A stretch of 64,000 bases of DNA from an uncultured Candidatus Saccharibacteria bacterium (GTDB lineage: Bacteria; Patescibacteriota; Minisyncoccia; Portnoybacterales; UBA2143): NCBI GenBank assembly GCA_964594155.1, contig CAZQLH010000001.1, positions 74,132 through 138,131 on the forward strand, given 5' to 3'. This document shows, piece after piece, positions 4,172-56,261 of the stretch. Numbering within the stretch: position 1 is the stretch's first letter; each line of letters opens with the position of its first letter. The notes beneath the pieces are model-generated. The model ran no database searches and was not told the DNA's origin. It saw only the letters and a list, made by a program, of their open reading frames with translations. Both the position numbers and the translations under genes were made by a program.

Positions 4172-5572
4172 TTATTTAACAATCTTTATGCCCAACTCAT
4201 TTAATTGCCCTGAATCAACCTTGCTTGGCGCGCCCATCATTAAATCGCGCCCATCGCCTGTTTTAGGAAAAGCTATTACTTCCCTAATATTTTCTTCATT
4301 TAAAAACATGGCTAATAAACGATCTAATCCCAAGGCAATACCGCCGTGAGGAGGCGCTCCGTATTCAAAAGCTTCTAATAAATGACCGAACTTTTCTTCT
4401 ATTTCTTCTTTAGTTAATCCAACTAATTTAAATATTTTTTCTTGAATGTCTTTTTGATGAATTCTAATGCTTCCTCCAGCTACTTCTACGCCGTTTAATA
4501 CTAAATCATATTGCTGAGAAAGAACCTCTAATGGTTCTGTGTTTAATAAAGGAATATGCTTTTTTTTAGGCGCGGTAAAAATATGATGGCAAGGGTCATG
4601 TCTTTTTTCTTCGTCATTCCATTCAAAAAGAGGAAAATTAACAACCCAAACAAATGCCAACTCATCAGGATCTTTTTTATCTTCTCTTAAATCAGGGCTA
4701 TCAGTGCCATATTTTTCCATTGCCTCTTGATAATCCAATTTTAAAAAGGGTTTAAAAGTAAGTTTTTTAGATAATTTTTCATCAAAAACAACTAATTCTT
4801 GAATGGTTTTAATAATAAGCTTTTCAATTAAATTAATAACTTTTTTCTGATTAACAAAAGACATTTCCACATCTAATTGGGTAAACTCTGGCTGTCTATT
4901 GCCTCTCAAATCTTCATCTCTAAAACACCTGGCAATTTGAAAGTATTTTTCCAAGCCAGCTACCATTAACAATTGCTTTAGTTGCTGAGGAGCTTGCGGC
5001 AAGGCATAGAATTCTCCTTGATGAAAATGAGTTGGCACTAAAAAATCTCTGGCTCCTTCTGGAGTTGATTTAGTTAAAATCGGCGTTTCTACTTCAATAA
5101 ATCCTTTCTTATCCATAAAATCTCTGATTAATTTAATTACTTTGTGCCTAAGAACTAAATTATTTTTCATTTTATGACGCCTTAAATCTAAATAACGATA
5201 TTTTAAACGAACTTCCTCTCCAACTTCCTTATACTCAGCAATTTCAAAAGGAGTTGTTTTAGCTTTATTTAATACTTTTAATTCCTTAACTTCTATTTCT
5301 ACTTGGCCAGTAGAAATTTTATCATTAATCATTCCATTGGGTCTCTTATTAATTTGCCCTATCACTTCAATCACCCATTCATTTCTTAAAGAATTAGCTA
5401 ATTTATAGCAATCTTTGTTATCTGGAGCAAATACTAACTGGATTAATCCTTTTTTATCGCGAAGGTCAATAAAAATAATCTGGCCATGATCTCTGCGCGC
5501 ATGAACCCAGCCAGCTAATCTAACCCTGTCCCCTATTTTTTCAATTGTTTTAACAGATAAAATACGCTTCAT
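4172..5572 (-). CDS. aspS: Aspartyl-tRNA synthetase, bacterial-type sequence but only 466 aa (no GAD insertion domain)
   Basis: N-terminal OB-fold anticodon-binding domain. Motif 2 [24 protein letters not shown] matches the E. coli AspRS [25 protein letters not shown]. Motif 3 [18 protein letters not shown] is present. Confidence 0.85.
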   Translation of the reverse strand: [466 protein letters not shown]

Positions 5573-5617
5573 ATACTTAATATATTACCACTTTCCAATA
5601 CAACAATCAATTGTGAA

Positions 5618-5650
5618 TAAAAAAAAACAGGCGATTTCTCGCGCTGTTTT
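5618..5650 (-). terminator. Rho-independent terminator downstream of tRNA-Lys, bidirectional in form
   Basis: GC-rich hairpin acaggcga-tttc-tcgcgctgt at 5627-5647. On the plus strand it is preceded by an A9 run and followed by TTTT, so on the minus strand the hairpin is followed by T9. Confidence 0.6.
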
Positions 5651-5657
5651 ATATTAG

Positions 5658-5730
5658 TACCCCGTGAGGGAATCGAACCCACGACACATTGGTTAAAAGC
5701 CAACTGCTCTACCGACTGAGCTAACGGGGC
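5658..5730 (-). tRNA. tRNA-Lys (anticodon TTT)
   Basis: The reverse complement reads GCCCCGTTAGCTCAGTCGGTAGAGCAGTTGGCTTTTAACCAATGTGTCGTGGGTTCGATTCCCTCACGGGGTA. It has a D-loop, an anticodon loop CTTTTAA, a TTCGATT T-loop and no encoded CCA. It resembles E. coli tRNA-Lys. Confidence 0.85.
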
Positions 5731-5782
5731 ATATTAATATTTTACCCGAACTTAAAATAAAAATCAAGTTAAAGCACAAACT

Positions 5783-5844
5783 AAGGAACGTCCTTAAAAT
5801 ATACGTCCTTATGCACAAGGACGTATATTTTAAGGACGTTCCTT
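5783..5844. repeat. 62-bp perfect palindrome (28-bp arms, 6-nt loop atgcac); copy 1 of the AAGGAACGTCCTT repeat family
   Basis: The arm aaggaacgtccttaaaatatacgtcctt is followed by atgcac and then by the exact reverse complement of the arm. The element is intergenic between tRNA-Lys and the 5857-6408 gene. Confidence 0.9.
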
Positions 5845-5856
5845 GAGCTTAATAAT

Positions 5857-6408
5857 CTATTTATCTTTATCTAACTTTCTTTTTCTTCGTATTAAAACCA
5901 TTGTTAAAATCGGCAGAAGAATCCAGACAAACTGAGCTTCAGAACCAGTAAGTATTTTTCTGATTGGAGAAGAAAGAGTATCTATTGCTTCTTGTGGCAA
6001 AAAAGAAAGAATAACCATGGCTAATAAACCAACCTGAACAACGCTTAAGGTAAAAAGCTGCAGCCAAGAAGCATACCCTCTTTTCCTAATTCTTAAAGTT
6101 GAGCTTAATACTGAACGAGGAATTAAAAAATAGAATAATAAGATAAGACATAAGAAAATCAAAGTTCTTAAAGAAGATGAGGGTTCCTGTCCGATTCCCA
6201 GCCACCCATAAGAAGTTATTCTTTGCCAAGGAACAGCTTGAACAATAGCTAAGGAAAAATAACTGCCTAAAAGCAAGATTATCATCCGATTGCGGCCAAG
6301 AAAAAAACCATAAACAAGAACCGTAACTAAGAAAATTAAAATAATAAACAAATCCCAGCCTGAAGCTGATCCTATGTGTAAATTAGTTAAAAAATCACGA
6401 AAAGCCAT
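5857..6408 (-). CDS. Hypothetical polytopic membrane protein
   Basis: 183 aa with 4-5 hydrophobic segments and a basic C-terminal tail. Its start overlaps the dnaJ stop (ATGA). No recognisable family motif. Confidence 0.4.
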   Translation of the reverse strand: MAFRDFLTNLHIGSASGWDLFIILIFLVTVLVYGFFLGRNRMIILLLGSYFSLAIVQAVPWQRITSYGWLGIGQEPSSSLRTLIFLCLILLFYFLIPRSVLSSTLRIRKRGYASWLQLFTLSVVQVGLLAMVILSFLPQEAIDTLSSPIRKILTGSEAQFVWILLPILTMVLIRRKRKLDKDK

Positions 6409-7493
6409 TATGTTTTCCCTAGTTCTTTAATAATTTTCTTTTGTTGACGAGATGGTTTCTTAGGAACATTAACTTGAATTTTAACAATTAAACTTCCTTG
6501 TCCTTGTCCATACAATCTTGACATGCCTTTATTCTTTAATTCTATCATTTCTCCGGGTTGAATACCAGCTGGAATTTTTAATTTAACTTTTCCATCTAAT
6601 ATTGGTATTTCTATTTTATCGCCTAAAACTGCTTGGGCAAAGTTAATATTCAGATTAAAAACCAAATCATCTCCTTGTCGTTGAAATTGCTTATGAGGCT
6701 TAACATGAACATTGATAAATAAATCGCCGGCTGGTCCGCCATAAGGCCCTGCTTCTCCCTGATTAGACATTTTCAATGTCTGTCCATTATTAATGCCAGC
6801 TGGAATAGTAATTTTAATCTTGCTGATTTTTTTTATTCTTCCCTGACCGCGACATTCAGGACAAGTTTTCTCTGGCATCTCTCCGCGTCCATGACATTTA
6901 GAACATTGTCTTTGCTGAATAAACATTCCGAACAAACTACTGCTTCTTATTTGCTCATAACCGCTTCCTTGGCAATTAGAGCACTTTTTTAAAGATTTAC
7001 CGCCTTTTCCATCGCATTTTTCACAAACATTCATTTTTTTTAATTCTATCTCTTTTTTAACTCCATGAAAAGCGTCTTCTAAATCTATTTCTGTATCTAT
7101 AATAATATCTTGGCCATATTGAACAGTTTGTCTGGGTCTGGCCCCAAAGCCGAACATTTGTTCAAAAATCCGTCCAAAACCAAGATCTTCAAAAATATCC
7201 TGACCGCCAAAAGCATCGTAAAAAGAACCAAAATCCTGTTGGGAAAATCCCTGGCCAAAAGGCGCTCCTTCAAATACTTGACCATATTGATCATATTGGT
7301 CTTTCTTGTTTTTATCAGAAAGAACGCTATAGGCCTTACTAATTTCTTTAAATTTTTTTTCGTATTCTTTTTTCTTACTTTCAGGAGCCCGATCAGGATG
7401 GTATTTTAAAGCTAATTTTCGATAAGCTTTTTTGATTTCACTCTCTGAAGCGCTGCGAGGAACCCCTAAAACTTCATAATAATCTTTTGCCAT
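6408..7493 (-). CDS. dnaJ: Chaperone DnaJ
   Basis: J-domain with HPD (KYHPDRAP), a G/F-rich linker, four CxxCxGxG zinc-finger repeats and a C-terminal peptide-binding domain. Confidence 0.9.
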
Positions 7494-7507
7494 ATATTAA
7501 TTAAACC

Positions 7508-8260
7508 CTATAACTCTATTACTTCCTTTAAAACTGATCGTTCTTGTATTTTTACCGCTCCTAAAAAAACTAAAATCTTGAAAATCAGCATACTTAATAA
7601 AATAACTAACCACATAAAAGGAACACTGATTGTTTTTATTGCAAAAAAAATACCCAAAGACAAGCCAATTGGAAAATATTCTTTATAGGGCTGACTGCGT
7701 TTATTAATTTCTTGATTCAAAGTTTGATAAATTGCATCCTCAATGCTTTCTTCGCCTAATAAGGAAGTATACGGCTTAACTGCTATATCAAATAAAGGGC
7801 GAGGGATTTCAATTTGGCCTTGTCCTTTAAGAGATAATGGGGAAAAATAATAAGCTGAAGCGATAATTAAAGATAAAGCTGTCAAAATATACGGCAATCC
7901 CCGTTTAAGAATTCTAAATACTTGAATTTTAACTCTAATATTTTTTTCTTCAATTGCGCGCAAAGAACCAAAATAGAAAAGAAGGAAAGCAGTAAAAAGA
8001 ACAGCTAAATATTCCAATTTAAAACTAAAAGAAAGCAAAAAGGAAACCAAAACAACAATTAGGGTAACTAATAATATTGGCTTTGATTCAGCTAACAGCC
8101 AAGCTAAACTTAAAAAGACCACTAAAATTAAAAAGCCCAAGCTTGGCCAAATCCAACTTCCATTTTCAAATAAGATGTTTTTTAACCCAGACCAACTAAC
8201 AGCGGCCACTAAAGTGGCCAAACCTACAATAACTGATTGAGTAACACGATTAGTAGTCAT
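7508..8260 (-). CDS. Hypothetical integral membrane protein
   Basis: 250 aa with multiple TM helices and no diagnostic motif. It lies adjacent to the glycosyltransferase locus. Confidence 0.35.
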   Translation of the reverse strand: MTTNRVTQSVIVGLATLVAAVSWSGLKNILFENGSWIWPSLGFLILVVFLSLAWLLAESKPILLVTLIVVLVSFLLSFSFKLEYLAVLFTAFLLFYFGSLRAIEEKNIRVKIQVFRILKRGLPYILTALSLIIASAYYFSPLSLKGQGQIEIPRPLFDIAVKPYTSLLGEESIEDAIYQTLNQEINKRSQPYKEYFPIGLSLGIFFAIKTISVPFMWLVILLSMLIFKILVFLGAVKIQERSVLKEVIEL

Positions 8261-18050: not shown

Positions 18051-18087
18051 TTAATTTTCAAGGAACTCCTCCTTAAAAACCTCCTCT

Positions 18088-18726: not shown

Positions 18727-18751
18727 AAAAAAATTGCCTTATCACAGGCAA
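18727..18751 (-). terminator. Hairpin plus T-run immediately upstream of the Wzz-like start codon; likely terminator of the dnaK transcript
   Basis: Minus strand reads ttgcctgtgataaggcaa then TTTTTTT then ATG of the 18088-18726 gene. No Shine-Dalgarno sequence lies between. Confidence 0.5.
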
Positions 18752-18802
18752 TAATATTATAACCAAATTCTATCTTGTTTGTCAAATTTTGTCAAGCGAA
18801 TT

Positions 18803-18864
18803 CAAGGACCGTCATAGAAAATGATGTTCTTGGAACAAGGACGTCATTTTCAGGACGGTCCTTA
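18803..18864. repeat. Degenerate copy of the AAGGAC...GTCCTT palindromic repeat family, immediately downstream of dnaK
   Basis: aaggaccgtc ... gacggtcctt form 10-bp perfect outer arms. The inner arms are imperfect and the centre is a cttg-gaa-caag mini-hairpin. The right half aaggacgtcattttcaggacggtcctt is close to the right arm of the copies at 5783 and 50134. Confidence 0.75.
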
Positions 18865-27067: not shown

Positions 27068-28150
27068 TTAATTATCATCTAAATCTAATAATGGCCTTTC
27101 TAAATCTTCAGTTTCTATCTTTGGCTTGCCGCTAATAATCTTAGCTGTATCCTTGTCTATTTTTTTAAGCTCTTGATTGCTTCTATTGTACATATTAACA
27201 GTTGTATTAATGCTATTGCCTAATTTCTTATGATATGAACTATAGCCCTTAACATGCCTGTCTAACTTGCCTACTAATTTAATAATTTCCTTGGTTGATT
27301 CTTCAATTTGCATCCCTCTTAATCCTTCTAAAATTGTTTGTAAATACGCATAGAAAGATGTAGGCGAAACTATATGAACATGTTTTTCTCTAATTGCATA
27401 ATCTAACAAGCTTCTAGTATTAGCTTTAATTGCTCCAATTTTATTAACTAATAAGTCATAATATATTGCTTCAGCTGGAATAAACATAAAAGCAAATTCA
27501 TAAGTTCCTTCTTTGGGCTTAATATATTTAGCTGTTTCATCAATCCTTGTTTTTAAATCCTGCTTAAATGCTTTTTCTAATTTCTCTCTTTTATTTGGAT
27601 CATTTTCCCCTATAATCCTATTATAATTCTCTAATGAAAATTTAGAATCAATTGGAATTATTTTATCTTTTAGGAATATAACAGCATCAACAATCTGGCC
27701 GTCTTTAAAGCTATATTGCATCTGATACTGGCTAGGATTAAAAATATTCTTTAATAATTCCTCTAAATAATATTCGCCTAAAACGCCTCTGCGCTTGGGA
27801 TTTGTTAAAATATTTTCCAAAGATTGCAGCTGCTCAGCAAAGCTAACTACTTGCTTATTAGTATTTTTTAATTCAGTCAATCCTTGAGTAACATTTTTAA
27901 TAATCTTAGCGCTCTCGCTAAACTGACTTTGAACAGATTTAGCTGATTCAGAAAGCTTGTTATCTAAAACCTGGCTTAGCTGATTCATCTGCTGTTGAAG
28001 CATTAATAATGATTGATTATCTTCTTGTTCTGGTTTTTTCTTTAATAATAAAAAAAATAAGAAACCTAGCCCGACAACTATTAATATTAAGAGAAAAATA
28101 ATAAAAGTTTCCATAGAAATTATTTTAACACAAATTAGACAAAAGAACAA
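27068..28150 (-). CDS. rmuC: DNA recombination protein RmuC
   Basis: 360 aa. An N-terminal TM segment, a long coiled coil and a C-terminal RmuC nuclease-like domain (...AFMFIPAEAIYYDLL...HVHIVSPTSFYAYLQTI). Confidence 0.8.
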   Translation of the reverse strand: MFFCLICVKIISMETFIIFLLILIVVGLGFLFFLLLKKKPEQEDNQSLLMLQQQMNQLSQVLDNKLSESAKSVQSQFSESAKIIKNVTQGLTELKNTNKQVVSFAEQLQSLENILTNPKRRGVLGEYYLEELLKNIFNPSQYQMQYSFKDGQIVDAVIFLKDKIIPIDSKFSLENYNRIIGENDPNKREKLEKAFKQDLKTRIDETAKYIKPKEGTYEFAFMFIPAEAIYYDLLVNKIGAIKANTRSLLDYAIREKHVHIVSPTSFYAYLQTILEGLRGMQIEESTKEIIKLVGKLDRHVKGYSSYHKKLGNSINTTVNMYNRSNQELKKIDKDTAKIISGKPKIETEDLERPLLDLDDN

Positions 28151-28152
28151 AT

Positions 28153-28189
28153 AAAAAAACCTGGATTTGTTAAAAAACAGGTTTTTTTT
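28153..28189 (-). terminator. Rho-independent terminator downstream of ugd, bidirectional in form
   Basis: aacctgg-atttgttaaaaaa-caggtt hairpin at 28158-28183, flanked by an A7 run upstream and a T8 run downstream on the plus strand. Confidence 0.6.
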
Positions 28190-28207
28190 ATTTGTTTTTT
28201 TTTGCTT

Positions 28208-43586: not shown

Positions 43587-43609
43587 CCGCATAAACACAG
43601 AAATAAAAA

Positions 43610-43636
43610 CACTCTGCAGTACTGCAGAGTGTTTTT
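43610..43636. terminator. Bidirectional rho-independent terminator between the RRM gene and tRNA-Trp
   Basis: Perfect hairpin cactctgcag-ta-ctgcagagtg flanked by AAAAA upstream and TTTTT downstream, so it can serve both strands. Confidence 0.75.
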
Positions 43637-43652
43637 AGTTGTTTAATTTAAT

Positions 43653-48112: not shown

Positions 48113-48149
48113 TCCCAATTCAAGGACTGTCCTTAAAAAAAGCTATTTT

Positions 48150-48926
48150 TTATTTACTTTCAAAATACTCCAGTAAAAACCCGACTAACAATTCCCCGCC
48201 TAATTCATCTAATTTGGGCTCAATAAAATACTCTGCCTTAACCCTGTCTGATTTTACAGAAACGCCTTTTCCAATCTGTAACATCTCCTCATCATTATAA
48301 TTATTCCCAGTAGTCATAATTTGTTTTGGTTTAATATTAAGTTTTTCAGCCAAATTACTAATTGCCTTGCCCTTAGACATTTCTTTACTGCCAATATCAT
48401 AACCTTCATTAGTCCAAAGGCAATACAAACTATCTTTAGATGTTTCTTTAACTAAATTAGGTATTTCTTCCATTTGCTCGCAATGCACAGTTAGAATAAA
48501 CAGCTTTGGCTCAAATCCCCTAATTCTTGAATCGTTCTTTTTCATTTCTTTAATCTTTTCTTTCAAATCTCTTAATTGATCAAAATACTCATCTGGATAT
48601 ACTGGATGAGTTATTTTATTATTCAGCCAAGTAATATTGCCGTTTTCCGCTTGAAGAACGGTTTGTTTGTCAAAAATCTCATTAACTAAACTTTTAAGAT
48701 AAAGAATATTCCTGCCTGAAGAAAAATTAATCCGAATATATTTTTCAAGCTTTTTTAAATTTTCTATAAACTCTTGTGAAATCTGTTTTGATTTTATAAA
48801 CAATTCTGTGCCATCTTGGTTCTCTCTTAATTCAGTGCCTACTGGAATAATCACCCCGTCAATATCAAAAGTAACTACCTTAATATTATCTAATTCTTCT
48901 TTTGTAATTTCTTTAATATTTTTCAT
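48150..48926 (-). CDS. HAD-superfamily hydrolase (Cof/SPP-like)
   Basis: The N-terminal motif I VVTFDIDGVII (DxDG) is present. Motif III/IV-like GNNYNDEEM lies near the C-terminus. Confidence 0.5.
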   Translation of the reverse strand: MKNIKEITKEELDNIKVVTFDIDGVIIPVGTELRENQDGTELFIKSKQISQEFIENLKKLEKYIRINFSSGRNILYLKSLVNEIFDKQTVLQAENGNITWLNNKITHPVYPDEYFDQLRDLKEKIKEMKKNDSRIRGFEPKLFILTVHCEQMEEIPNLVKETSKDSLYCLWTNEGYDIGSKEMSKGKAISNLAEKLNIKPKQIMTTGNNYNDEEMLQIGKGVSVKSDRVKAEYFIEPKLDELGGELLVGFLLEYFESK

Positions 48927-48944
48927 AAGTATATTATAACATAA

Positions 48945-50123
48945 CTATCCAAACATTAAAATTTCCGGCCTGAAGATTAAAAGCAGGCCAAGAATGAAAA
49001 TTAGCAAACCGCCGATTAATGTGCTCCATTTGATATATTTATCTGTAAAGCCAATCTGACTTAAAGTTATTACTGCTATTCCAAAAATAATTAAGTCGTC
49101 TATCATGAAAATAAAAGTGTATAGTAAAAGATACGAATAATAACTAAGAGAACTTAATTCATTTAATGACAATATTCGGGTATAAATAGCTGGCAAGCCA
49201 GCTGAACAGAAAAACTCAATTAAATTAACTCCTAAAGCTAATGCAATAATTCCAAGTAAAGTAGCTGGCAAGGCGCTTGACTGAACTACTTGCTTAGCTT
49301 TTTCTGTTAATTTTTCTTGTCTTTTGCCGCCTGCTGGCGCTACTTCGCAAGTTCCAGGCTTGTAAAGGGTAAAATTCCTAATTTGCCAAATACCAGCTCC
49401 TAAGGCAATTATGCCAATGATTATTCTAGTTAATCCAACATAACTAATAGCTAAGAATAAATTAAGCCAAGCTGTTAAAAGTAGATAATAAACTACACCT
49501 GAGGCAAGAATGAAAGTTCCGCCTACTAACCACATTTTCTTCCGAGATTTAACATTAATTAACAAAGCAATCAAGAAAAGCAAAACCCACATAGCGCAAG
49601 GATTAAATCCATCCAAAGCTGCCAATATTACAGTTAAAACCGGTAAAGATAATTTAGAAAGATTAATTTGCCCGATAATAGGATAATTAATAATTTCATC
49701 CTTTTTTTCTTTTTTCTCACACTTTAATTTTTCTAAAGGATTAAAACATTCTTTTGTTAAACAATTTAAAACTGCTTCTTCAATAGCTTTACCAGTAGTT
49801 TCATCATTTAAATAACCAATAATTGCTTCATCTCCGATAAATATAGCTGGAACTCTAACCACTTCTTCTTCTCCGCAAGATTTAAGAAATTCAAGCAATA
49901 ATTTAGCATTATCCTTATTACTATAAACTTCATATGTATTTATTTTAATTGAAGGATATCTTTCCTGAAGATCTTTTAAAAAAACTGCTGGTTTTTTGCA
50001 ATGAGGACAAGTACTGCCATAGAAGAAATGAATTTCTACTTGATTATCTTCTTGAGCAAAAGCAAAATTAGCTAGGCCTAAAAAAACAAACGATATTAAA
50101 ATTAAAACAATAAATTTTTTCAT
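48945..50123 (-). CDS. Thiol:disulfide oxidoreductase: secreted thioredoxin-fold domain (CPHC) fused to a CcdA/DsbD-like transmembrane domain
   Basis: Signal peptide, then FFYGSTCPHCKK (CxxC). The C-terminal 6-8 TM helices have Cys in NPCAMW and FFCSAG, like the DsbD beta-domain and CcdA. Confidence 0.5.
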   Translation of the reverse strand: MKKFIVLILISFVFLGLANFAFAQEDNQVEIHFFYGSTCPHCKKPAVFLKDLQERYPSIKINTYEVYSNKDNAKLLLEFLKSCGEEEVVRVPAIFIGDEAIIGYLNDETTGKAIEEAVLNCLTKECFNPLEKLKCEKKEKKDEIINYPIIGQINLSKLSLPVLTVILAALDGFNPCAMWVLLFLIALLINVKSRKKMWLVGGTFILASGVVYYLLLTAWLNLFLAISYVGLTRIIIGIIALGAGIWQIRNFTLYKPGTCEVAPAGGKRQEKLTEKAKQVVQSSALPATLLGIIALALGVNLIEFFCSAGLPAIYTRILSLNELSSLSYYSYLLLYTFIFMIDDLIIFGIAVITLSQIGFTDKYIKWSTLIGGLLIFILGLLLIFRPEILMFG

Positions 50124-50133
50124 AGTTAATTCT

Positions 50134-50195
50134 AAGGAACGTCCTTAAAATATACGTCCTTTTGCATAAGGACGTATATTTTAAGGACGTTCCTT
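50134..50195. repeat. 62-bp perfect palindrome (28-bp arms, loop ttgcat); copy 2 of the AAGGAACGTCCTT repeat family
   Basis: The arms are identical to the 5783-5844 copy; only the 6-nt loop differs. The element is intergenic between mnmA and the DsbD-like gene. Confidence 0.9.
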
Positions 50196-50198
50196 GAT

Positions 50199-51278
50199 TC
50201 ATTCCTTGATTTCCCCACCACCAAGACAAATATCCCCTTGATAAAAAACCGCCCATTGGCCCGGAGTAATTGCTTTTTGCGGATTATCAAAAACTAATTT
50301 CTTGCCTCTTAGATAAAGCTTAGCTGGAGACAATGATTGATTAAAACGCGTCTTAGCTTCAACTTTAATTGCTTTTTTTGGCGCTTGACCAGAAATAAAA
50401 TGAGGTTTGGAAATAATAATTGTTTTTTTAAAAAGACCTAAGTCATCTTCCTGATTAGTAACAATAAGCTGATTTTTTTTCCTATTAAAACCAATCACCC
50501 ACCAGGGACCGCCTGGAACTGTAATTCCCCGGCGCTGGCCAATGGTATAAAAATGCAACCCTTGATGCTGGCCTAAAACATTATTTTCCTGATCAATAAT
50601 TTCTCCTGATTCAAAGCCGATTTCTTCTTCTAAATAAGAAGTTATTGATTGCTTAGCCACAAAACAAAGATCCTGGCTCTGCTTTATCTTGCTGAAAAAA
50701 TCAAGGCCTTCTTTTTTAGCTATCTTATAAACATGCTCTTTTGTATATCCTCCTAATGGAAAAACTATATTCTTCAACTGTTTCTGAGTTAAAAGACAAA
50801 GAAAATAGCTTTGATCTTTTCTTTCATCTTTTCCTCTAAGAAGTTCATATTTCTTTGTTTCTTTATTCTCTCTTACTCGAGCATAATGACCAGTAGCTAC
50901 ATACTTAATCCCCTTTTTCTTAGCAAAATCAAATAGCTTATTAAATTTTACCAAGCGATTGCAAACCAAACAAGGATTAGGAGTTTTCTTTTCTTTAAGA
51001 ACTCTTAAAAAATATCCAATTACTTTTTCTTTAAAATCAAGTTGCTCATCAATGATATAATATGGGACTTTTAGTTTTTGGCAAATTTCTTTGGCAATAC
51101 TAAACGATTCTGCTGAACAGCAAACATTTTCTCTAAGAATATTTCTTTTATTCTCCCAAATAGAATATTTTAATGAAACGCCAATTGGCTGATATCCTTG
51201 TTTTTTTAACAATAACAAAGAAATCGAGGAATCAACCCCGCCTGACAAGCCAACAACTATTTTTTTTGATTTCTTCAT
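50199..51278 (-). CDS. mnmA: tRNA-specific 2-thiouridylase MnmA
   Basis: The PP-loop VVGLSGGVDSS and the catalytic Cys context are present. The C-terminal domain reads ...GQWAVFYQGDICLGGG. Confidence 0.85.
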   Translation of the reverse strand: MKKSKKIVVGLSGGVDSSISLLLLKKQGYQPIGVSLKYSIWENKRNILRENVCCSAESFSIAKEICQKLKVPYYIIDEQLDFKEKVIGYFLRVLKEKKTPNPCLVCNRLVKFNKLFDFAKKKGIKYVATGHYARVRENKETKKYELLRGKDERKDQSYFLCLLTQKQLKNIVFPLGGYTKEHVYKIAKKEGLDFFSKIKQSQDLCFVAKQSITSYLEEEIGFESGEIIDQENNVLGQHQGLHFYTIGQRRGITVPGGPWWVIGFNRKKNQLIVTNQEDDLGLFKKTIIISKPHFISGQAPKKAIKVEAKTRFNQSLSPAKLYLRGKKLVFDNPQKAITPGQWAVFYQGDICLGGGEIKE

Positions 51279-51279
51279 A

Positions 51280-52542
51280 TTATTCCTTTCTCATTGCCTC
51301 AACTGGGCTTAATTTGGCTGCTTTGCGAGCTGGATAAATGCCAAAAATTAATCCAATAGCCATAGAAACAAAGAAAGCAAGTATAATAGCCAGCCAAGAA
51401 ACATCCACTGGCCAACTGCTTAATCCTTGTGATCTAGCTACAAAGCTGCCTATTAGAAAATTACCAATTCCTAAAACAATTCCAATTACTCCGCCTAAAA
51501 CAGTAATAATTAAACTTTCAATCAAAAACTGCCAAAGAATATTTTTCTTAGTTGCGCCTAATGACTTTCGCAATCCAATTTCATGAGTTCTCTCGCTAAC
51601 TGAAACCAGCATAATATTCATAATGCCGATTCCGCCGACTAATAAGGAAATAGCCGCTAAAAATCCCAATAAAAGATTTAAAATAATACTTATTTCCTGA
51701 ACCTTGCTGATAACTTCCTCCATAGTAGTAATCTGGAAATCATCTTTGGTTGGATCTTTAATATTATGATGACGGCGGAGCATTTGAGAAATTTCCTCAA
51801 TTGCCTGAACAGAATAGCTTTCATCTTTAATGGTTAAAATTATCTCTAATAGATAATCAATTCCTAAAACCTCTTTAAGAGTTGTATTAATAGGAACATA
51901 CATAAAATCATTCATATCAACTCCGCCAAATGAAAAGCCTCCCATTGGCTCTAAGGCGCCAACAATTTTAAAGCTTTGACCCTTTAGCTTAATTTTCTTG
52001 CCTATGGGATCTGCTAACCCAAAAAACTCTTCAGCTAAATTACTGCCTAAAACAGCTACTTTAGCTAATGTCTCATCTTCTGTGTCAGTAAAAAAACGTC
52101 CTTTATCTATTTTAGCTGTCTTCATTACCAAGGGAAAATCAGCATTAGCTCCAAAAAGCAAAACTTTTTTTTCTTTATCCCTGTAAACAGCCCATTCTTG
52201 GGCAAAAGTTTCTCCAGTTACTGCTTCAATATATGGAAATCTTTCTTTATCTTTAAGCGCTTTAATGTCTTTTATCTTAAGAGTTGTTATCTTGATTCCC
52301 TGCATTATGGAAATAGCTGATCCAACTTCGCTTGCTTCCGGCACTTTAACTGCAATATCAAGTATTCCTGGGCCAAATGCTTCAATCTCATTAGTAACAA
52401 AACCTTTTAAGCTTTGCCCTAATGAAAGAATAATTACCACAGCTGATACTCCAATAACAATTCCTAAAATAGAAAAGAAACTGCGCAGTTTATTCGCCTT
52501 TAGAGCAATAATTGATTGTTTGATAATGGAAAAAAGATTCAT
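51280..52542 (-). CDS. ABC transporter permease, MacB/FtsX family (paralogue 2)
   Basis: The start is taken at MNLFSIIKQ..., which aligns with the start of the upstream paralogue; the ORF track begins 22 codons earlier, inside the intergenic palindrome. N-terminal TM, a large periplasmic domain, and a C-terminal FtsX domain with GIGIMNIMLVSVSERTHEIGLRKSLGA. Confidence 0.75.
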   Translation of the reverse strand: MNLFSIIKQSIIALKANKLRSFFSILGIVIGVSAVVIILSLGQSLKGFVTNEIEAFGPGILDIAVKVPEASEVGSAISIMQGIKITTLKIKDIKALKDKERFPYIEAVTGETFAQEWAVYRDKEKKVLLFGANADFPLVMKTAKIDKGRFFTDTEDETLAKVAVLGSNLAEEFFGLADPIGKKIKLKGQSFKIVGALEPMGGFSFGGVDMNDFMYVPINTTLKEVLGIDYLLEIILTIKDESYSVQAIEEISQMLRRHHNIKDPTKDDFQITTMEEVISKVQEISIILNLLLGFLAAISLLVGGIGIMNIMLVSVSERTHEIGLRKSLGATKKNILWQFLIESLIITVLGGVIGIVLGIGNFLIGSFVARSQGLSSWPVDVSWLAIILAFFVSMAIGLIFGIYPARKAAKLSPVEAMRKE

Positions 52543-52553
52543 GATATCAAGCC

Positions 52554-52582
52554 GCAATTCGGCTATCGGATAGCCGAATTGC
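52554..52582. repeat. Perfect GC-rich 29-bp palindrome between the two paralogous FtsX permease genes
   Basis: GCAATTCGGCTATC-g-GATAGCCGAATTGC has 14-bp arms and a 1-nt centre. It lies within the 43-bp spacer between the upstream permease's stop (52586) and the downstream permease's start (52542). Confidence 0.85.
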
Positions 52583-52585
52583 GAA

Positions 52586-53818
52586 TTACTCGTAACGCAA
52601 CGCCTCAATTGGATTTAATTTAGAAGCGCGATTAGCCGGCCAAAGTCCGAATATTAAGCCAACAATAACAGCAACTGTTGTAGAAAGAATAACAGAAAAA
52701 GGCGTCACAATAAATCGCCAGTCATAGTCAAAATAATTAACTCCAATAGATATAACCAAGGCAATCAAAATTCCTAAAACAACACCTATTATTCCTCCGA
52801 TTAAAGTCATAATAGCGCTTTCTATTAAAAACTGGATTAAAATATCTTTTCTTCTGGCGCCAATTGCCTTGCGCAAGCCAATCTCTCTGGTTCTTTCATT
52901 AACTGCTACAAACATAATATTCATAATGCCGATTCCGCCGACTAATAAAGAAATAGCTGCTACAGCTACTAAAAACATTTTAAGCGCTTGAGTAATTGAT
53001 CCTAAAATATCCAAAGCTTGAGCAGTGCTTTTAACTCCAAAATCATCTTTAGCTGGATCTTTAATATGATGTTGATAACGAATAGTTGATTTAACTTGGC
53101 TAATAGTCAAGTTAATATTTTCTGGCTTATCAATTTTGGCTCGAATAAATGTTAAATGATCAACTCCTAAAAGAAGTTTTTGGGCTGTTTTCAAAGGAAC
53201 AAAAACCTGTTCATCTTGATTTTGAAAAGTAACCACTCCTCTTTCTTTCATAACGCCAACAACTTTAAAACTAACTTGATTTATTTTAATTCTTTTATTT
53301 ATAGCGCTATCTTGACCAAATAATTTTTCTTTAACACTACTACCTAAAACAACTACCCTGTCCATTCCATTAACTTCTTCTGGTTTTATAAACCGGCCTG
53401 ATTCAACCGATGTGTCTTCAACTGATGTATATCCCGAAGTAACGCCAGTATAATCAAAATTCTTTGATTTGTTAAAATAACTTATTGTGCCTTGTCCTTT
53501 AATATATGAACAAACTGCCACAATGTGTGACAGTTCTTCTATTGCCAAAGCATCTTCATGTTTAAGAGTGGTTATTTCAATGCCAAAAGCAGAAGCTGGC
53601 GGACCAGCTTCATCAGCAGCTCCTGGCAAAACACCTATTAGATTGCTTCCCATTGCGCTAACTTGGGATAAAAGCAAATCCTGAGCGCTTGCTCCCACTG
53701 CCATAATTGAAATTACTGCGGCTACGCCAATAACAATTCCCAGCATTGTCAAAAAAGAACGGCTCTTTTGTAATAATAAATTATCAAAAGTTAATTTTAA
53801 AACATTAAATAGATACAT
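52586..53818 (-). CDS. ABC transporter permease, MacB/FtsX family (paralogue 1)
   Basis: 410 aa with the same architecture as paralogue 2. The FtsX motif is GIGIMNIMFVAVNERTREIGLRKAIGA. Confidence 0.75.
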   Translation of the reverse strand: MYLFNVLKLTFDNLLLQKSRSFLTMLGIVIGVAAVISIMAVGASAQDLLLSQVSAMGSNLIGVLPGAADEAGPPASAFGIEITTLKHEDALAIEELSHIVAVCSYIKGQGTISYFNKSKNFDYTGVTSGYTSVEDTSVESGRFIKPEEVNGMDRVVVLGSSVKEKLFGQDSAINKRIKINQVSFKVVGVMKERGVVTFQNQDEQVFVPLKTAQKLLLGVDHLTFIRAKIDKPENINLTISQVKSTIRYQHHIKDPAKDDFGVKSTAQALDILGSITQALKMFLVAVAAISLLVGGIGIMNIMFVAVNERTREIGLRKAIGARRKDILIQFLIESAIMTLIGGIIGVVLGILIALVISIGVNYFDYDWRFIVTPFSVILSTTVAVIVGLIFGLWPANRASKLNPIEALRYE

Positions 53819-53820
53819 AA

Positions 53821-54537
53821 TTATTTCTCCAAACCATCTTTAGCTGCATGCTGATTAGCTACTCTTTGATCAGAAATAATTTGACCGTCTTTTAAGATTA
53901 TAATCCGTCGGGCGCATTCAGCCACATATTTTTCATGAGTAACCATTAAAATAGTATGGCCTTCTTCATTTAAATCCTGTAAAACTTCCATTACTTCCTG
54001 GCCTGATTTGCTGTCTAAATTACCAGTTGGCTCATCAGCTAAAATTAAGCGCGGTTGATTAATTAAAGCCCTTACAATTGCCACTCTTTGCTGTTCTCCT
54101 CCAGAAAGCTGATTAGGATGATGATTAACCCTATGAGACAAACCTACTTTATCTAAAAGCTGCCTAGCTTTTTCTTCAACTTCTTTTTTGTCTATATCTG
54201 GAGTATAAATGGTTGGCAAAAGAACATTATCTAAAACAGAAGTTCTAGCCAAAAGATTATATGATTGAAAGATAAAACCAACTCTTTGATTTCTAATTTG
54301 AGCTAATTTATCATCATCAAACTCATTTATATCCTCATTATCAAAAAAATACTCGCCAGATGTTGCCCTGTCTAAAAATCCAATTATATGCATTAAGGTT
54401 GATTTTCCTGAACCAGAAGAACCCATTACCGCGATAAACCCTCCTTGCTTAATATCAAAAGAAACCCCGCGTAAAGCCGGGGTAACTAATTCTTCATTAA
54501 CATAATCCTTGGTAATATTTTCTAATTTTATAAGCAT
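53821..54537 (-). CDS. ABC transporter ATP-binding protein (MacB/LolD-type)
   Basis: Walker A GSSGSGKST, Q-loop, ABC signature LSGGEQQRVA, Walker B ILADEPTGNLD and the H-loop are all present. Confidence 0.9.
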   Translation of the reverse strand: MLIKLENITKDYVNEELVTPALRGVSFDIKQGGFIAVMGSSGSGKSTLMHIIGFLDRATSGEYFFDNEDINEFDDDKLAQIRNQRVGFIFQSYNLLARTSVLDNVLLPTIYTPDIDKKEVEEKARQLLDKVGLSHRVNHHPNQLSGGEQQRVAIVRALINQPRLILADEPTGNLDSKSGQEVMEVLQDLNEEGHTILMVTHEKYVAECARRIIILKDGQIISDQRVANQHAAKDGLEK

Positions 54538-54554
54538 CTAATTTAATATATATC

Positions 54555-54630
54555 CCTAAACGAATATTCTGAAATTTTTGAGACGCGTCGGAGCCCTTTA
54601 GGGTAAAGCGCGAATAAATTTTAGAATATG
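54555..54630 (-). promoter_or_regulatory. Structured GC-rich element between the HlyD and ATPase genes
   Basis: The imperfect inverted repeat aatattctgaaattt / aaattttagaatat encloses the GC-rich core gagacgcgtcggagccctttagggtaaagcgcg. The core contains the GACGCGTC and CCC-ttta-GGG mini-palindromes. Confidence 0.4.
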
Positions 54631-54647
54631 AGTTTAATAAATTTATT

Positions 54648-56261
54648 CTATCTCTCTATAATCACTTCTTCGTTCTCTCCTAATCCGCTAAGAATTTCTA
54701 CTCTTGTTTCTCCTTCTAATCCAGTGGCTATTGTTTTTTCTTTTCTCTTTCCATTTTCAATAACTACAACATATTTCCGCCCATTTGTTTCTTTAATGCT
54801 GTAATAAGGCAGATATAAAATATTTTCTTTTTTATCTGTTTCAATATCTAAATTAACTGTCATGCCTGATTTAATCCTTTCATCTTCTGCGTCAAAAATA
54901 GAAGTTGCTTTATAGTAAATTACCCCAGAAACAATTGTTTCAGCTGGATTAATTTTAATAATCTTGCCAGTAAATTTTTCATCCGGACCTAAAGCATCTA
55001 AGGTCATATCTATTTTATCCCCTAAATTAACTTTAGCAATTTCTGTTTCTGAAATATTAGCTTCAATTTGGAAATTGCTTGTGCTAATCATTGAAACAAT
55101 TATTGAATTAGCTTGGGCTGTTTCTCCTTCTTCCTTTTCTATAACAGTAATAATTCCGTTAGTTGGAGCTTTTAAAATAGTTTTATTTATTTTTTCATAA
55201 ATCTGAAGCACATTTGCCTGAGCTTGATTAACTTCAGCTTGAGCTAAATCAATATCAGTTTGCCTAGGGCCGGCTTTTTTCAAAACTAATTCATCTTGAG
55301 CTTTTTTTAGATTGGTTTTAGTTGTATCTAAATTAGCTTCAGCTGTATTAATATTTGTCTGATTAGTTATTTTAGTTGAGCTAATTGATTGTTCAGCTGA
55401 AGTTAAATTAACCAATTGATTATCAATACTAGCTCTTTCTGTATCAATATTTGTTTCATCAGCTGAAGAAACTGAATTGCTGACGCTTGGATCATCTAAA
55501 GCTGCCCTTAAATAAGCCAAAGCATTTCTAGCGCTAATAACAGCTGTTTTCATCGCGTCTAAAGCTGAATCAATATTGCTATGCGTAGGATTGTTATCAG
55601 CTACATCTAAATAATCTTCAGCTATAGATAAATCGTTTTGAGCTACGCTTTCTTTGCTTTTAACAGCAATAGATAATTGGCTGCTGCCATTAAAATAGTT
55701 TTTTCTAACTCCAGCAAAAATTATTAATAAGGCCTGATCAGTTACTGTATAAGCTGTCTTAACAGTATCTAAAGCGTCTTCATAAGAAGCATCCAAATCA
55801 TTATCTGCGTCAGCTTGCGCGTCAATCAATGCCTGCTCTTTATTAGATACTTCTATTTGAGCATTATCAACTGCTGTTTGATAAACTTGAATATCTTCTG
55901 GCCTGCTGCCAGCTAAAGTTTGAGCTAATTTTGCTTGAGCAATATCTAAAGCTGCTTGATTAGATTTAAGCTGAGCGTTTAATTCACCTGTATTTAATCT
56001 AATTAAAACCTGATTAGTTGAAACTCTATCGCCAACTTTTGTTTCAATCCTGCTTATTTTCCCCTGATTCTCAAATTGTAAATCTATTTGCTTGGCTGGA
56101 ATAACTGTGCCAGTAACTGAAACATTCTGAATAACATCTCCTTTAGAAACAACTTCTGTGGTATATGGCAGTTCTTTTTCTCCAAAAATTCCCTGATAGG
56201 CAAAATAAAGGCCGATGAAAACAATAATAATACTGATAATAATAATTATTTTCTTTTTCAT
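54648..56261 (-). CDS. HlyD/MacA-family periplasmic adaptor protein
   Basis: N-terminal TM, a lipoyl/beta-barrel segment (VSVTGTVIPAKQIDL), a very long coiled-coil hairpin (about 250 aa) and a C-terminal beta-barrel. Confidence 0.75.
   Translation of the reverse strand: MKKKIIIIISIIIVFIGLYFAYQGIFGEKELPYTTEVVSKGDVIQNVSVTGTVIPAKQIDLQFENQGKISRIETKVGDRVSTNQVLIRLNTGELNAQLKSNQAALDIAQAKLAQTLAGSRPEDIQVYQTAVDNAQIEVSNKEQALIDAQADADNDLDASYEDALDTVKTAYTVTDQALLIIFAGVRKNYFNGSSQLSIAVKSKESVAQNDLSIAEDYLDVADNNPTHSNIDSALDAMKTAVISARNALAYLRAALDDPSVSNSVSSADETNIDTERASIDNQLVNLTSAEQSISSTKITNQTNINTAEANLDTTKTNLKKAQDELVLKKAGPRQTDIDLAQAEVNQAQANVLQIYEKINKTILKAPTNGIITVIEKEEGETAQANSIIVSMISTSNFQIEANISETEIAKVNLGDKIDMTLDALGPDEKFTGKIIKINPAETIVSGVIYYKATSIFDAEDERIKSGMTVNLDIETDKKENILYLPYYSIKETNGRKYVVVIENGKRKEKTIATGLEGETRVEILSGLGENEEVIIER

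Follow-up and report, generated by a model that had tools for sequence, protein, structure and literature searches.

The window analysed here is a stretch of 64,000 nt from an uncultured Candidatus Saccharibacteria bacterium (GCA_964594155.1, CAZQLH010000001.1:74,132-138,131), and the question that it raises is what two 62-bp palindromes with the same arms are doing between its genes. Our answer is that they most probably belong to a REPIN/RAYT system of the 'TIRtron' kind: they would be non-autonomous REPIN-like elements, made of the terminal repeats of a RAYT (REP-associated tyrosine transposase) locus joined head to head. Coordinates are those of the window unless preceded by an L-number, which denotes a comparison locus or contig fetched from outside it.

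Palindromic elements in the window

The elements on which the analysis is centred are the following.

5783-5844: copy 1; left arm 5783-5810, spacer AAAATAT, loop ATGCAC, right arm 5817-5844
50134-50195: copy 2; arms the same as in copy 1, loop TTGCAT
18803-18864: copy 3, an imperfect 62-nt hairpin with the variant 13-mer AAGGACCGTC... / ...GGACGGTCCTT and one intact octamer at 18837-18844
48122-48134: solo 13-mer AAGGACTGTCCTT, between the convergent trpS and the open reading frame (ORF) 48150-48926

A sequence-only reading had described the first two as palindromes with identical 28-bp arms and different 6-nt loops, and this is confirmed: the arm AAGGAACGTCCTTAAAATATACGTCCTT occurs four times (5783-5810 and 50134-50161 on the plus strand, 5817-5844 and 50168-50195 on the minus strand), against a shuffle expectation of 0.00. 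Each arm is built from the 13-mer AAGGAACGTCCTT, itself quasi-palindromic (AAGGA-ACG-TCCTT), a 7-nt AT spacer and the octamer ACGTCCTT; there are four octamers per element, in the symmetric order <- <- -> ->, and only TGCA or NTGCAN stands between the two repeats of an element. The octamer AAGGACGT is found 11 times in the window (0.53 expected), eight of these inside the two main elements, while AAGGA-N3-TCCTT is present five times (0.16 expected). The degenerate third copy reported after dnaK is real: it forms an imperfect hairpin, has the inner octamer in common with the main copies and carries the variant AGGACGGTCCTT as its outer 13-mer. It is a diverged or decayed relative. The 13-mer core noted after trpS is likewise present, as AAGGACTGTCCTT, which also adjoins an element in L010; this solo site is probably a relic or the representative of a sister family. 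By contrast, the sequence proposed as a further member at 18062-18076, AAGGAACTCCTCCTT, exists but has neither the ACGT core nor the N3 spacing, and we did not count it.

Nearly all genes of the window lie on the minus strand. The three copies are intergenic and downstream of minus-strand genes, as had been stated, 3-12 nt past the stops of a 183-aa ORF, mnmA and dnaK. Folded as RNA, the main copies reach -46 to -50 kcal/mol on either strand (z about -12 to -13), and copy 3 reaches -32.8 kcal/mol (z -5.3).

Dispersal and turnover of the family

A scan of 185,579 species genomes with the pattern AAGGACGT-N7-AAGGACGTTCCTT returned 17 loci, 13 of which come from a single Patescibacteria metagenome-assembled genome (MAG), JAHJUH01. 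The remaining matches were one in JAHJOV01, another Patescibacteria MAG, one in a Saccharibacteria-labelled MAG, and two in Sediminispirochaeta (L006) and Bryobacterales (L009), which are 15-nt tandem repeats without a palindrome and were set aside as unrelated. JAHJUH is a sister of the window genome, with 85-92% nucleotide identity over syntenic stretches, and it holds members of the family at no fewer than 14 intergenic sites; the new contigs from a metagenome scan all came from a JAHJUH-type sister population. The window's own species is represented by contigs L024-L026, from samples (e.g. ERZ23499064, ERZ23499047) that hold 100%-identical window sequences. Two sister loci serve for direct comparison with the window.

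L002 (JAHJUH): syntenic to window 4591-8156
L010 (JAHJUH): syntenic to window 49244-55959

Taken over the window, JAHJUH and the own-species contigs, the family amounts to 15 unique dispersed loci. All 15 are intergenic, none being inside a gene body, and each is flanked either by two co-directional genes or by a gene and a tRNA. The distance past the upstream stop ranges from 0 to 75 nt and is mostly 2-14 nt; in several cases the element end ...CCTTAA provides the stop codon, namely of mnmA (L010), of a miaB-like gene (L001) and of a sigma gene (L024). The genes beside them have unrelated functions (lepA, recJ, RNase H, ftsW/rodA, miaA/miaB-like, pth, fructose-bisphosphate aldolase, transporters), and in L007 a TTGACA-N18-TATAAT promoter follows the element. 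These copies are therefore neither the only ones nor derived from a conserved gene segment, the two outcomes that would have spoken against the sequence-only reading: the family occupies scattered intergenic sites and recurs in more than one genome.

Its distribution differs between close relatives. At L010:5919-5978 the sister MAG has an element together with a solo 13-mer, while the orthologous site of the window (53818-53821) is empty: the genes 52586-53818 and 53821-54537 are 2 nt apart there and the upstream protein is 5 residues longer. A 'B' subfamily, in which one spacer has an additional T and one 13-mer carries a C>T change, occupies six JAHJUH loci and one JAHJOV locus, and such derived errors shared at unlinked loci imply copy-and-paste. 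In the sense RNA the 'B' mismatch is G.U at five loci and A.C at two, which does not discriminate between selection at the RNA and at the DNA level. The loop follows the genome, not the locus: the window species has ATGCAC or TTGCAT and JAHJUH mostly TGCA, even at the orthologues of copies 1 and 2.

The two arms of an element vary together. In the arm alignment (A1) 98.4% of cells are paired and compensatory changes are seen in 9 of 28 pairs, the clearest being the spacer variants AAAATAT/ATATTTT, AAAACAT/ATGTTTT and AGAATAT/ATATTCT; register-shifted controls were 34-56% paired. None of 500 shuffles was as high, which is to be taken as a control and not as a probability, since kinship alone can beat all shuffles without any structure. 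At the element borders, CT adjoins exactly one end in 10 of the 15 loci (11.6% expected, P = 7e-7), the other end then usually being followed by G. In E. coli, the transposase TnpA-REP cuts next to REP hairpins, at CT dinucleotides (Messing et al. 2012, PMC3479197); the one-sided CT parallels that cleavage site and is an indirect, suggestive hint of single-strand cleavage. Target-site duplications, which the sequence-only reading had proposed to look for, were not found in any consistent form over the 15 loci.

A RAYT-class gene bounded by the same arms

The sister locus L015 (JAHJUH010000045.1) carries at 1248-1832, on the minus strand, a 194-aa ORF with arms of the family on both sides. One, AAGGAACGTCCTTAAAACATACGTCCTT, lies 13 nt ahead of the ATG. 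The other, inverted, stands at the 3′ end of the gene, where it encodes the last nine residues (KDVLFKDVP) and the stop, and a zero-loop dimer comes next. A lone arm was found solely beside the RAYT gene (L015:1845-1872). The protein matches Pfam Y1_Tnp (E 3.5e-14) and passes the NCBIfam equivalog NF047646, 'REP-associated tyrosine transposase', with 84.5 bits for a cutoff of 80, while on the NCBIfam IS200 model it fails, with 20.6 bits for a cutoff of 55. Its top sequence match in the PDB is 4ER8, E. coli TnpA-REP, with the HUH motif (NHIHLL) and the helix of the catalytic Tyr (YIHFNP; YIxxNP) aligned. P0001, the RAYT protein encoded on contigs of the window's own species, is 95% identical to it; 4ER8 also ranks first by fold for the AlphaFold model of P0001 (mean pLDDT 84.4), with E 4.3e-8 and a target TM of 0.69, ahead of the transposases of IS608 and ISDra2. 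Homology search gave 291 relatives, of which the few with an organism name bear the label Patescibacteria or Candidatus Pacebacteria and some are annotated by JGI as 'REP element-mobilizing transposase RayT'; the HUH, Tyr and YxWSS motifs are retained in 36 homologues. By its motifs, profile matches and modelled fold, the 194-aa protein is an HUH/Y1 transposase of the RAYT class. The 183-aa ORF next to copy 1, which was considered as a transposase candidate, is a multi-pass membrane protein without a Pfam match and was rejected.

In the window's own species, a P0001-type gene is present on contigs L024-L029, and L024-L026 show the same layout of flanking arms. Besides the arms at the RAYT gene, L024-L026 hold two further full elements.

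L024:11244-11305: element after the extracytoplasmic function (ECF) sigma gene, with spacers changed in both arms (AGAATAT/ATATTCT)
L024:16792-16853: element identical to window copy 1

The REP/MITE-like role (MITE: miniature inverted-repeat transposable element) that had been one of several suggested for the palindromes is supported by this RAYT-class gene, with the same arms around it in the own species and in relatives. The suggestion of a protein-binding palindrome holds only insofar as the transposase presumably binds the element, and a dedicated recombination-site role received no support.

The database product of the own-species gene has 231 aa, with a 37-residue N-terminal extension (L024:10001-10111) that runs across the upstream arm; all homologues begin at Met38, and the extension is probably a gene-calling artefact. 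Two contigs end or change at copy 1: in L034 (ERZ23499047 scaffold_36697) window 7249-5783 (100% identity) is fused through the 62-bp element to L024 16853-15658 (98%), the junction being an assembly chimera or else a genuine rearrangement of the two identical copies. L035 breaks off within the element, at window 5812. An unrelated 46-nt palindrome, AAAGGTTAGGGCTTTTAAGGTCCGACCTTAAAAGCCCTAACCTTT (L015:653-695), unique among the fetched loci, directly follows the ECF sigma gene of L015; in the window species (L024:11244-11305) and in L036 that site holds an element of the ACGTCCTT type.

Joint divergence of enzyme and repeat

The RAYT locus is not in the window; it has an rmlC-like gene on one side and the ECF sigma gene on the other. 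The RAYT gene stands directly before the sigma gene in four genomes: JAHJUH, the window species, and those of L036 and L037, where the protein identity is 74% and 64%, respectively; in L037 and in the window species the sigma gene is in turn followed by a DUF5667 gene. All P0001-bearing contigs show one gene context, and the RAYT neighbours, DUF5667 included wherever the contig extends that far, are the same in the four genomes over 95-64% identity, as judged from contigs.

Over this range the repeat changes too. L036 retains arms of the ACGTCCTT type, on both sides of the gene. In L037 the layout of 13-mer, 7-nt spacer, octamer and TGCA is kept, as is the overlap with the 3′ end of the gene, but the sequences are changed: the 13-mer is AAGGCCGTGCCTT and the octamer ACAACCTT or ACAGCCTT, and a full palindrome peculiar to this genome, with TGCA as its loop, lies dispersed at L037:6499-6558. 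Further away, a Pacebacteria genome (L038) encodes a 50%-identical RAYT with pairs of AAGGACTGTCCTT on both sides, the same 13-mer as at the solo site 48122 of the window. That enzyme and repeat change together argues for specific recognition of one by the other.

Alternative explanations and proposed mechanism

Several observations weigh against a REPIN/RAYT system, or limit how far it can be taken. The RAYT gene itself is absent from the 64-kb window (tblastn), and what ties the gene to the window genome is that samples and identical copies of the repeat are shared, rather than a contiguous sequence that holds both. Copy number is modest, with four full copies per about 85 kb of the own species, i.e. 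~1 per 20 kb. At the empty site, 100 nt replace 20 nt without a clean junction, and no junction rule can be read from the comparison. Covariation of the arms is also what one protein-recognition sequence would produce; it supports a hairpin but is no proof of it. The CT end shows no significant bias relative to transcription (6 vs 3). The classical hallmarks of REPs are missing, since there is neither an unpaired 5′ GTAG nor a short imperfect bulged hairpin, and CGTC occurs in the element only within the paired stem. Finally, both the activity of the enzyme and the effect of the RNA hairpin are predictions only.

How would other explanations fare with the same facts? One is that the palindromes are cis-acting RNA elements of the host (terminators devoid of a U-tract, 3′-end stabilisers or RNase III sites), kept identical by selection, and that the transposase link is incidental. 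The positions would suit such a role, 0-75 nt past stops and before promoters (12/12 after copy 3, 9/12 after copy 1, and the one in L007), as would the very stable RNA hairpins, and a preprint reports E. coli REPs as regulators in the 3′ untranslated region (bioRxiv 10.64898/2026.03.23.713779). Yet an RNA function needs structure, not sequence, whereas the 28-nt arms are identical at unrelated loci and defective subfamilies have been copied. Normal terminators, made of a hairpin and a T-run, occur elsewhere in the window (28141-28201, 43601-43640). The elements have no such run: as the sequence-only reading had remarked, no U-tract directly follows a copy, there being no terminator-like hairpin with a T-run at any of the three, and with downstream sequences such as AGUUUGUGC and AGAAUUAAC an intrinsic terminator was discarded. 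Moreover, copy 2 lies 10 nt before an ATG without a promoter-like site in between, where a strong terminator would silence the gene, and the arms flank the transposase in four genomes and diverge with it. We consider host RNA elements improbable on these grounds. In the window, only tRNAs reach the gathering score with Rfam 15, and at a permissive E-value the only additions are generic miRNA-precursor hairpin models, far under their cutoffs.

A second alternative is that the elements are MITEs of an ordinary, selfish insertion sequence (IS) of the IS200/IS605 type that spreads horizontally, and not of a single-copy, vertically inherited RAYT. The Y1_Tnp fold, the rank of IS608 and ISDra2 as next-best structures, the inverted arms that bracket the gene as in a transposon and the lack of target-site duplications, as in that IS family, would all agree with it. 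However, the IS200 model stays far under its cutoff while the RAYT model passes; the neighbours are the same on every P0001 contig, and the place before the ECF sigma/DUF5667 genes is held down to 64% protein identity. There is no adjacent TnpB gene, the neighbours being rmlC-like and sigma factor genes, and the viral collection, scanned for the element family, gave zero matches, on which a phage origin was rejected as well. Such an IS has little chance of being the source. Still less credible is a set of double-stranded operators, in which the four AAGGACGT sites would be bound by a transcription factor or nucleoid protein, for instance a heat-shock regulator. It draws on the four symmetric octamers and on the fact that two of the three window copies are beside chaperone operons (dnaK, dnaJ). 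But these copies are downstream of the operons and not at promoters, and the neighbours in the sister genome are unrelated in function (lepA, recJ, ftsW/rodA, miaB, fructose-bisphosphate aldolase, transporters), for which reasons the heat-shock version was dropped; besides, the start-to-start spacing of the octamers, 15 bp, is off the helical repeat, and the RAYT association accounts for the repeats without an extra factor. We see this as a very improbable explanation. A DNA uptake sequence was also rejected, the octamer being about 100x too rare for it and almost confined to the elements.

For the REPIN/RAYT system that we favour, the following course of events can be proposed, by analogy with TnpA-REP, IS608 and the other IS200/IS605 enzymes. 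The element would fold into a hairpin on single-stranded DNA; the transposase would bind it, cut at a flanking dinucleotide, probably the CT beside one end, and rejoin or copy it at a new single-stranded site without target duplication. In this very compact genome, the only places where copies would survive are the gaps of a few bases that separate a stop codon from the promoter or start that comes next. When transcribed, an element in that position would give a very stable hairpin at the mRNA 3′ end (about -46 to -50 kcal/mol), which could protect that end from decay, be a target for RNase III or make read-through less frequent. Position and stability make such an effect on transcripts plausible, including 3′-end stabilisation as a secondary effect, although complete termination is unlikely at copy 2, since a strong block there would silence the next gene.

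Relation to known systems

The closest description that we found is that of the TIRtrons or TIRYTs (Di Nocera, De Gregorio & Rocco 2013, PMC3733652): RAYT-like genes with long terminal inverted repeats unlike GTAG REPs, sometimes over the gene end, and with moderately abundant repeat families found as singles and dimers. The system described here resembles them in its Y1 RAYT-like gene with long, inverted, non-GTAG flanks, one of which covers the gene 3′ end, and in a moderately abundant repeat family of singles and head-to-head dimers with partly self-complementary tracts. It differs in host and sequence: TIRtrons are known from Proteobacteria, Acidobacteria and others, many with GGGGWSAS, whereas here the host is a patescibacterium of 33% GC, the repeat is AAGGNNNNNCCTT plus the octamer, and the dimers are near-perfect 60-62-bp palindromes. 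Published REPs occur in unidirectional ORF pairs, near the 3′ end of the upstream member, and their termini sometimes provide stop codons (PMC3733652); our elements behave similarly in their position after stops and in their supply of stop codons.

With the REPIN-RAYT systems of Pseudomonas and Enterobacteria (Bertels & Rainey 2011; Bertels et al. 2017, PMC5581495) there are in common a single conserved locus, its flanking by the most abundant repeat, the inverted-doublet hairpin, the extragenic location of the repeats, genome-specific populations and a synteny suggestive of vertical inheritance. The differences are the absence of a GTAG tag, copies in tens and not hundreds, and a 4-6 nt loop instead of a longer spacer. 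E. coli TnpA-REP (4ER8) is the best match in sequence and fold, with the HUH/Tyr motifs and the location of elements at gene 3′ ends shared and its cleavage at CT paralleled by the one-sided CT flank, but protein identity is about 20% only, and E. coli REPs are roughly 35-nt imperfect bulged hairpins with a 5′ GTAG guide (PMC3479197). As for IS200/IS605 and their palindrome-rich MITEs, the Y1 HUH fold, a single-stranded, hairpin-dependent chemistry and the absence of target duplication would be shared; however, the IS200 model is unmet, the ends are true inverted repeats and not hairpins that differ between left and right end, the data do not show the gene in several copies and there is no TnpB.

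Our literature search found no paper in which Patescibacteria are brought together with RAYT or REPIN; a KEGG hit to RAYT in an archaeon is noted in one preprint, and in large HUH and RAYT surveys the candidate phyla radiation groups are unmentioned. The protein has already been named by automatic pipelines, while the repeat family and its link with the gene appear to be undescribed. Systems of this kind are already known; for this lineage we found no published description.

Surroundings of individual copies and other repeats

Copy 1 lies 12 nt past the stop of the gene for the 183-aa membrane protein (5857-6408), which is itself downstream of dnaJ. The element is followed by the promoter-like TTGATT-17-TAAAAT of tRNA-Lys (9/12, 5767-5739, minus strand) and then by tRNA-Lys itself (5657-5730). 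Its orthologue is L002:1193-1252, in flanks that are 85% identical.

Copy 2 is 3 nt past the mnmA stop (50199) and 10 nt ahead of an ATG (50123), with no promoter-like site between the element and that ATG. The gene that follows encodes a secreted, signal-peptide thioredoxin-like membrane protein. The orthologue, L010:910-970, is a bulged member of the 'B' subfamily and provides the mnmA stop there. In the window the 3′ end of mnmA (50196-50222) reads ATCAAGGAA-TGA-ATCAAGGAA|CG..., that is, 9 nt are directly repeated at the element boundary; the sister MAG lacks the 12-nt unit (L010:971-985), and its element encodes the last mnmA codons together with the stop. The difference may be due either to micro-homology at the insertion site or to a slippage deletion. 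A 19-nt tandem duplication, AACTCTAAGGAACGTCTTT, is seen at the left end of the sister orthologue (L010:880-930, L018:1000-1048).

Copy 3 lies 3 nt past the dnaK stop (18868) and is followed by a perfect 12/12 sigma-70 promoter, TTGACA-18-TATAAT. Between this promoter and the ATG of a Wzz-like ORF there is a terminator-like hairpin, ATTGCCTGTGATAAGGCAAT, with TTTTTTT (18733-18752, minus strand), which may be a 5′ leader or an attenuator. The left end of copy 3, AAGGACCGTCATAG (18803-18816), recurs as an outer half-site round the elements of L001, L019 and L021. Outer half-sites, AAGGACNGTCATAG ... CTATGACNGTCCTT, bracket certain elements in a nested fashion (L001:2873-2976, L019:3865, L016:6321 and the right flank of L017), and such nesting may represent an older or longer version of the element.

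A second dispersed hairpin repeat, with a 28-nt core GCGCTTTACCCTAAAGGGCTCCGACGCG, is present at window 54548-54642 (minus strand) and, in the sister MAG, at L012:6068-6155 and L014:1580-1660. Its outer stems vary but remain complementary, the RNA folds at -18.8 kcal/mol (z -2.6) and -30.4 kcal/mol (z -4.7), and Rfam gave no match; the repeat may be a small RNA or one more mobile hairpin.

Significance

Most work on REPIN/RAYT systems has been done in large-genome Proteobacteria. The present case, intact, syntenic and co-diverging, would extend their range to the roughly 1-Mb genomes of the candidate phyla radiation and would mean that strongly reduced genomes can keep a population of self-copying repeats. 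Related genomes with ACGTCCTT/AAGGAACGTCCTT, ACAGCCTT/AAGGCCGTGCCTT and paired AAGGACTGTCCTT would form a natural data set for the way in which HUH/Y1 enzymes read DNA. There is also a practical side: identical 62-bp copies break or mis-join metagenome assemblies, and gene callers over-extend the transposase ORF by 37 codons.

A bolder proposal, which we offer tentatively and think rather doubtful as a whole, is that the partnership has been inherited vertically and has co-diversified over an order-level span of ultra-small Patescibacteria. The recognition module would have shifted with the enzyme, whose own C-terminus and stop are written in the terminal repeat, and copies would have been co-opted as stop donors and 3′ hairpin insulators between tightly packed essential genes. 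If this were true, the system would be domesticated, and not merely a tolerated parasite, in genomes that are thought to be nearly stripped of repeats.

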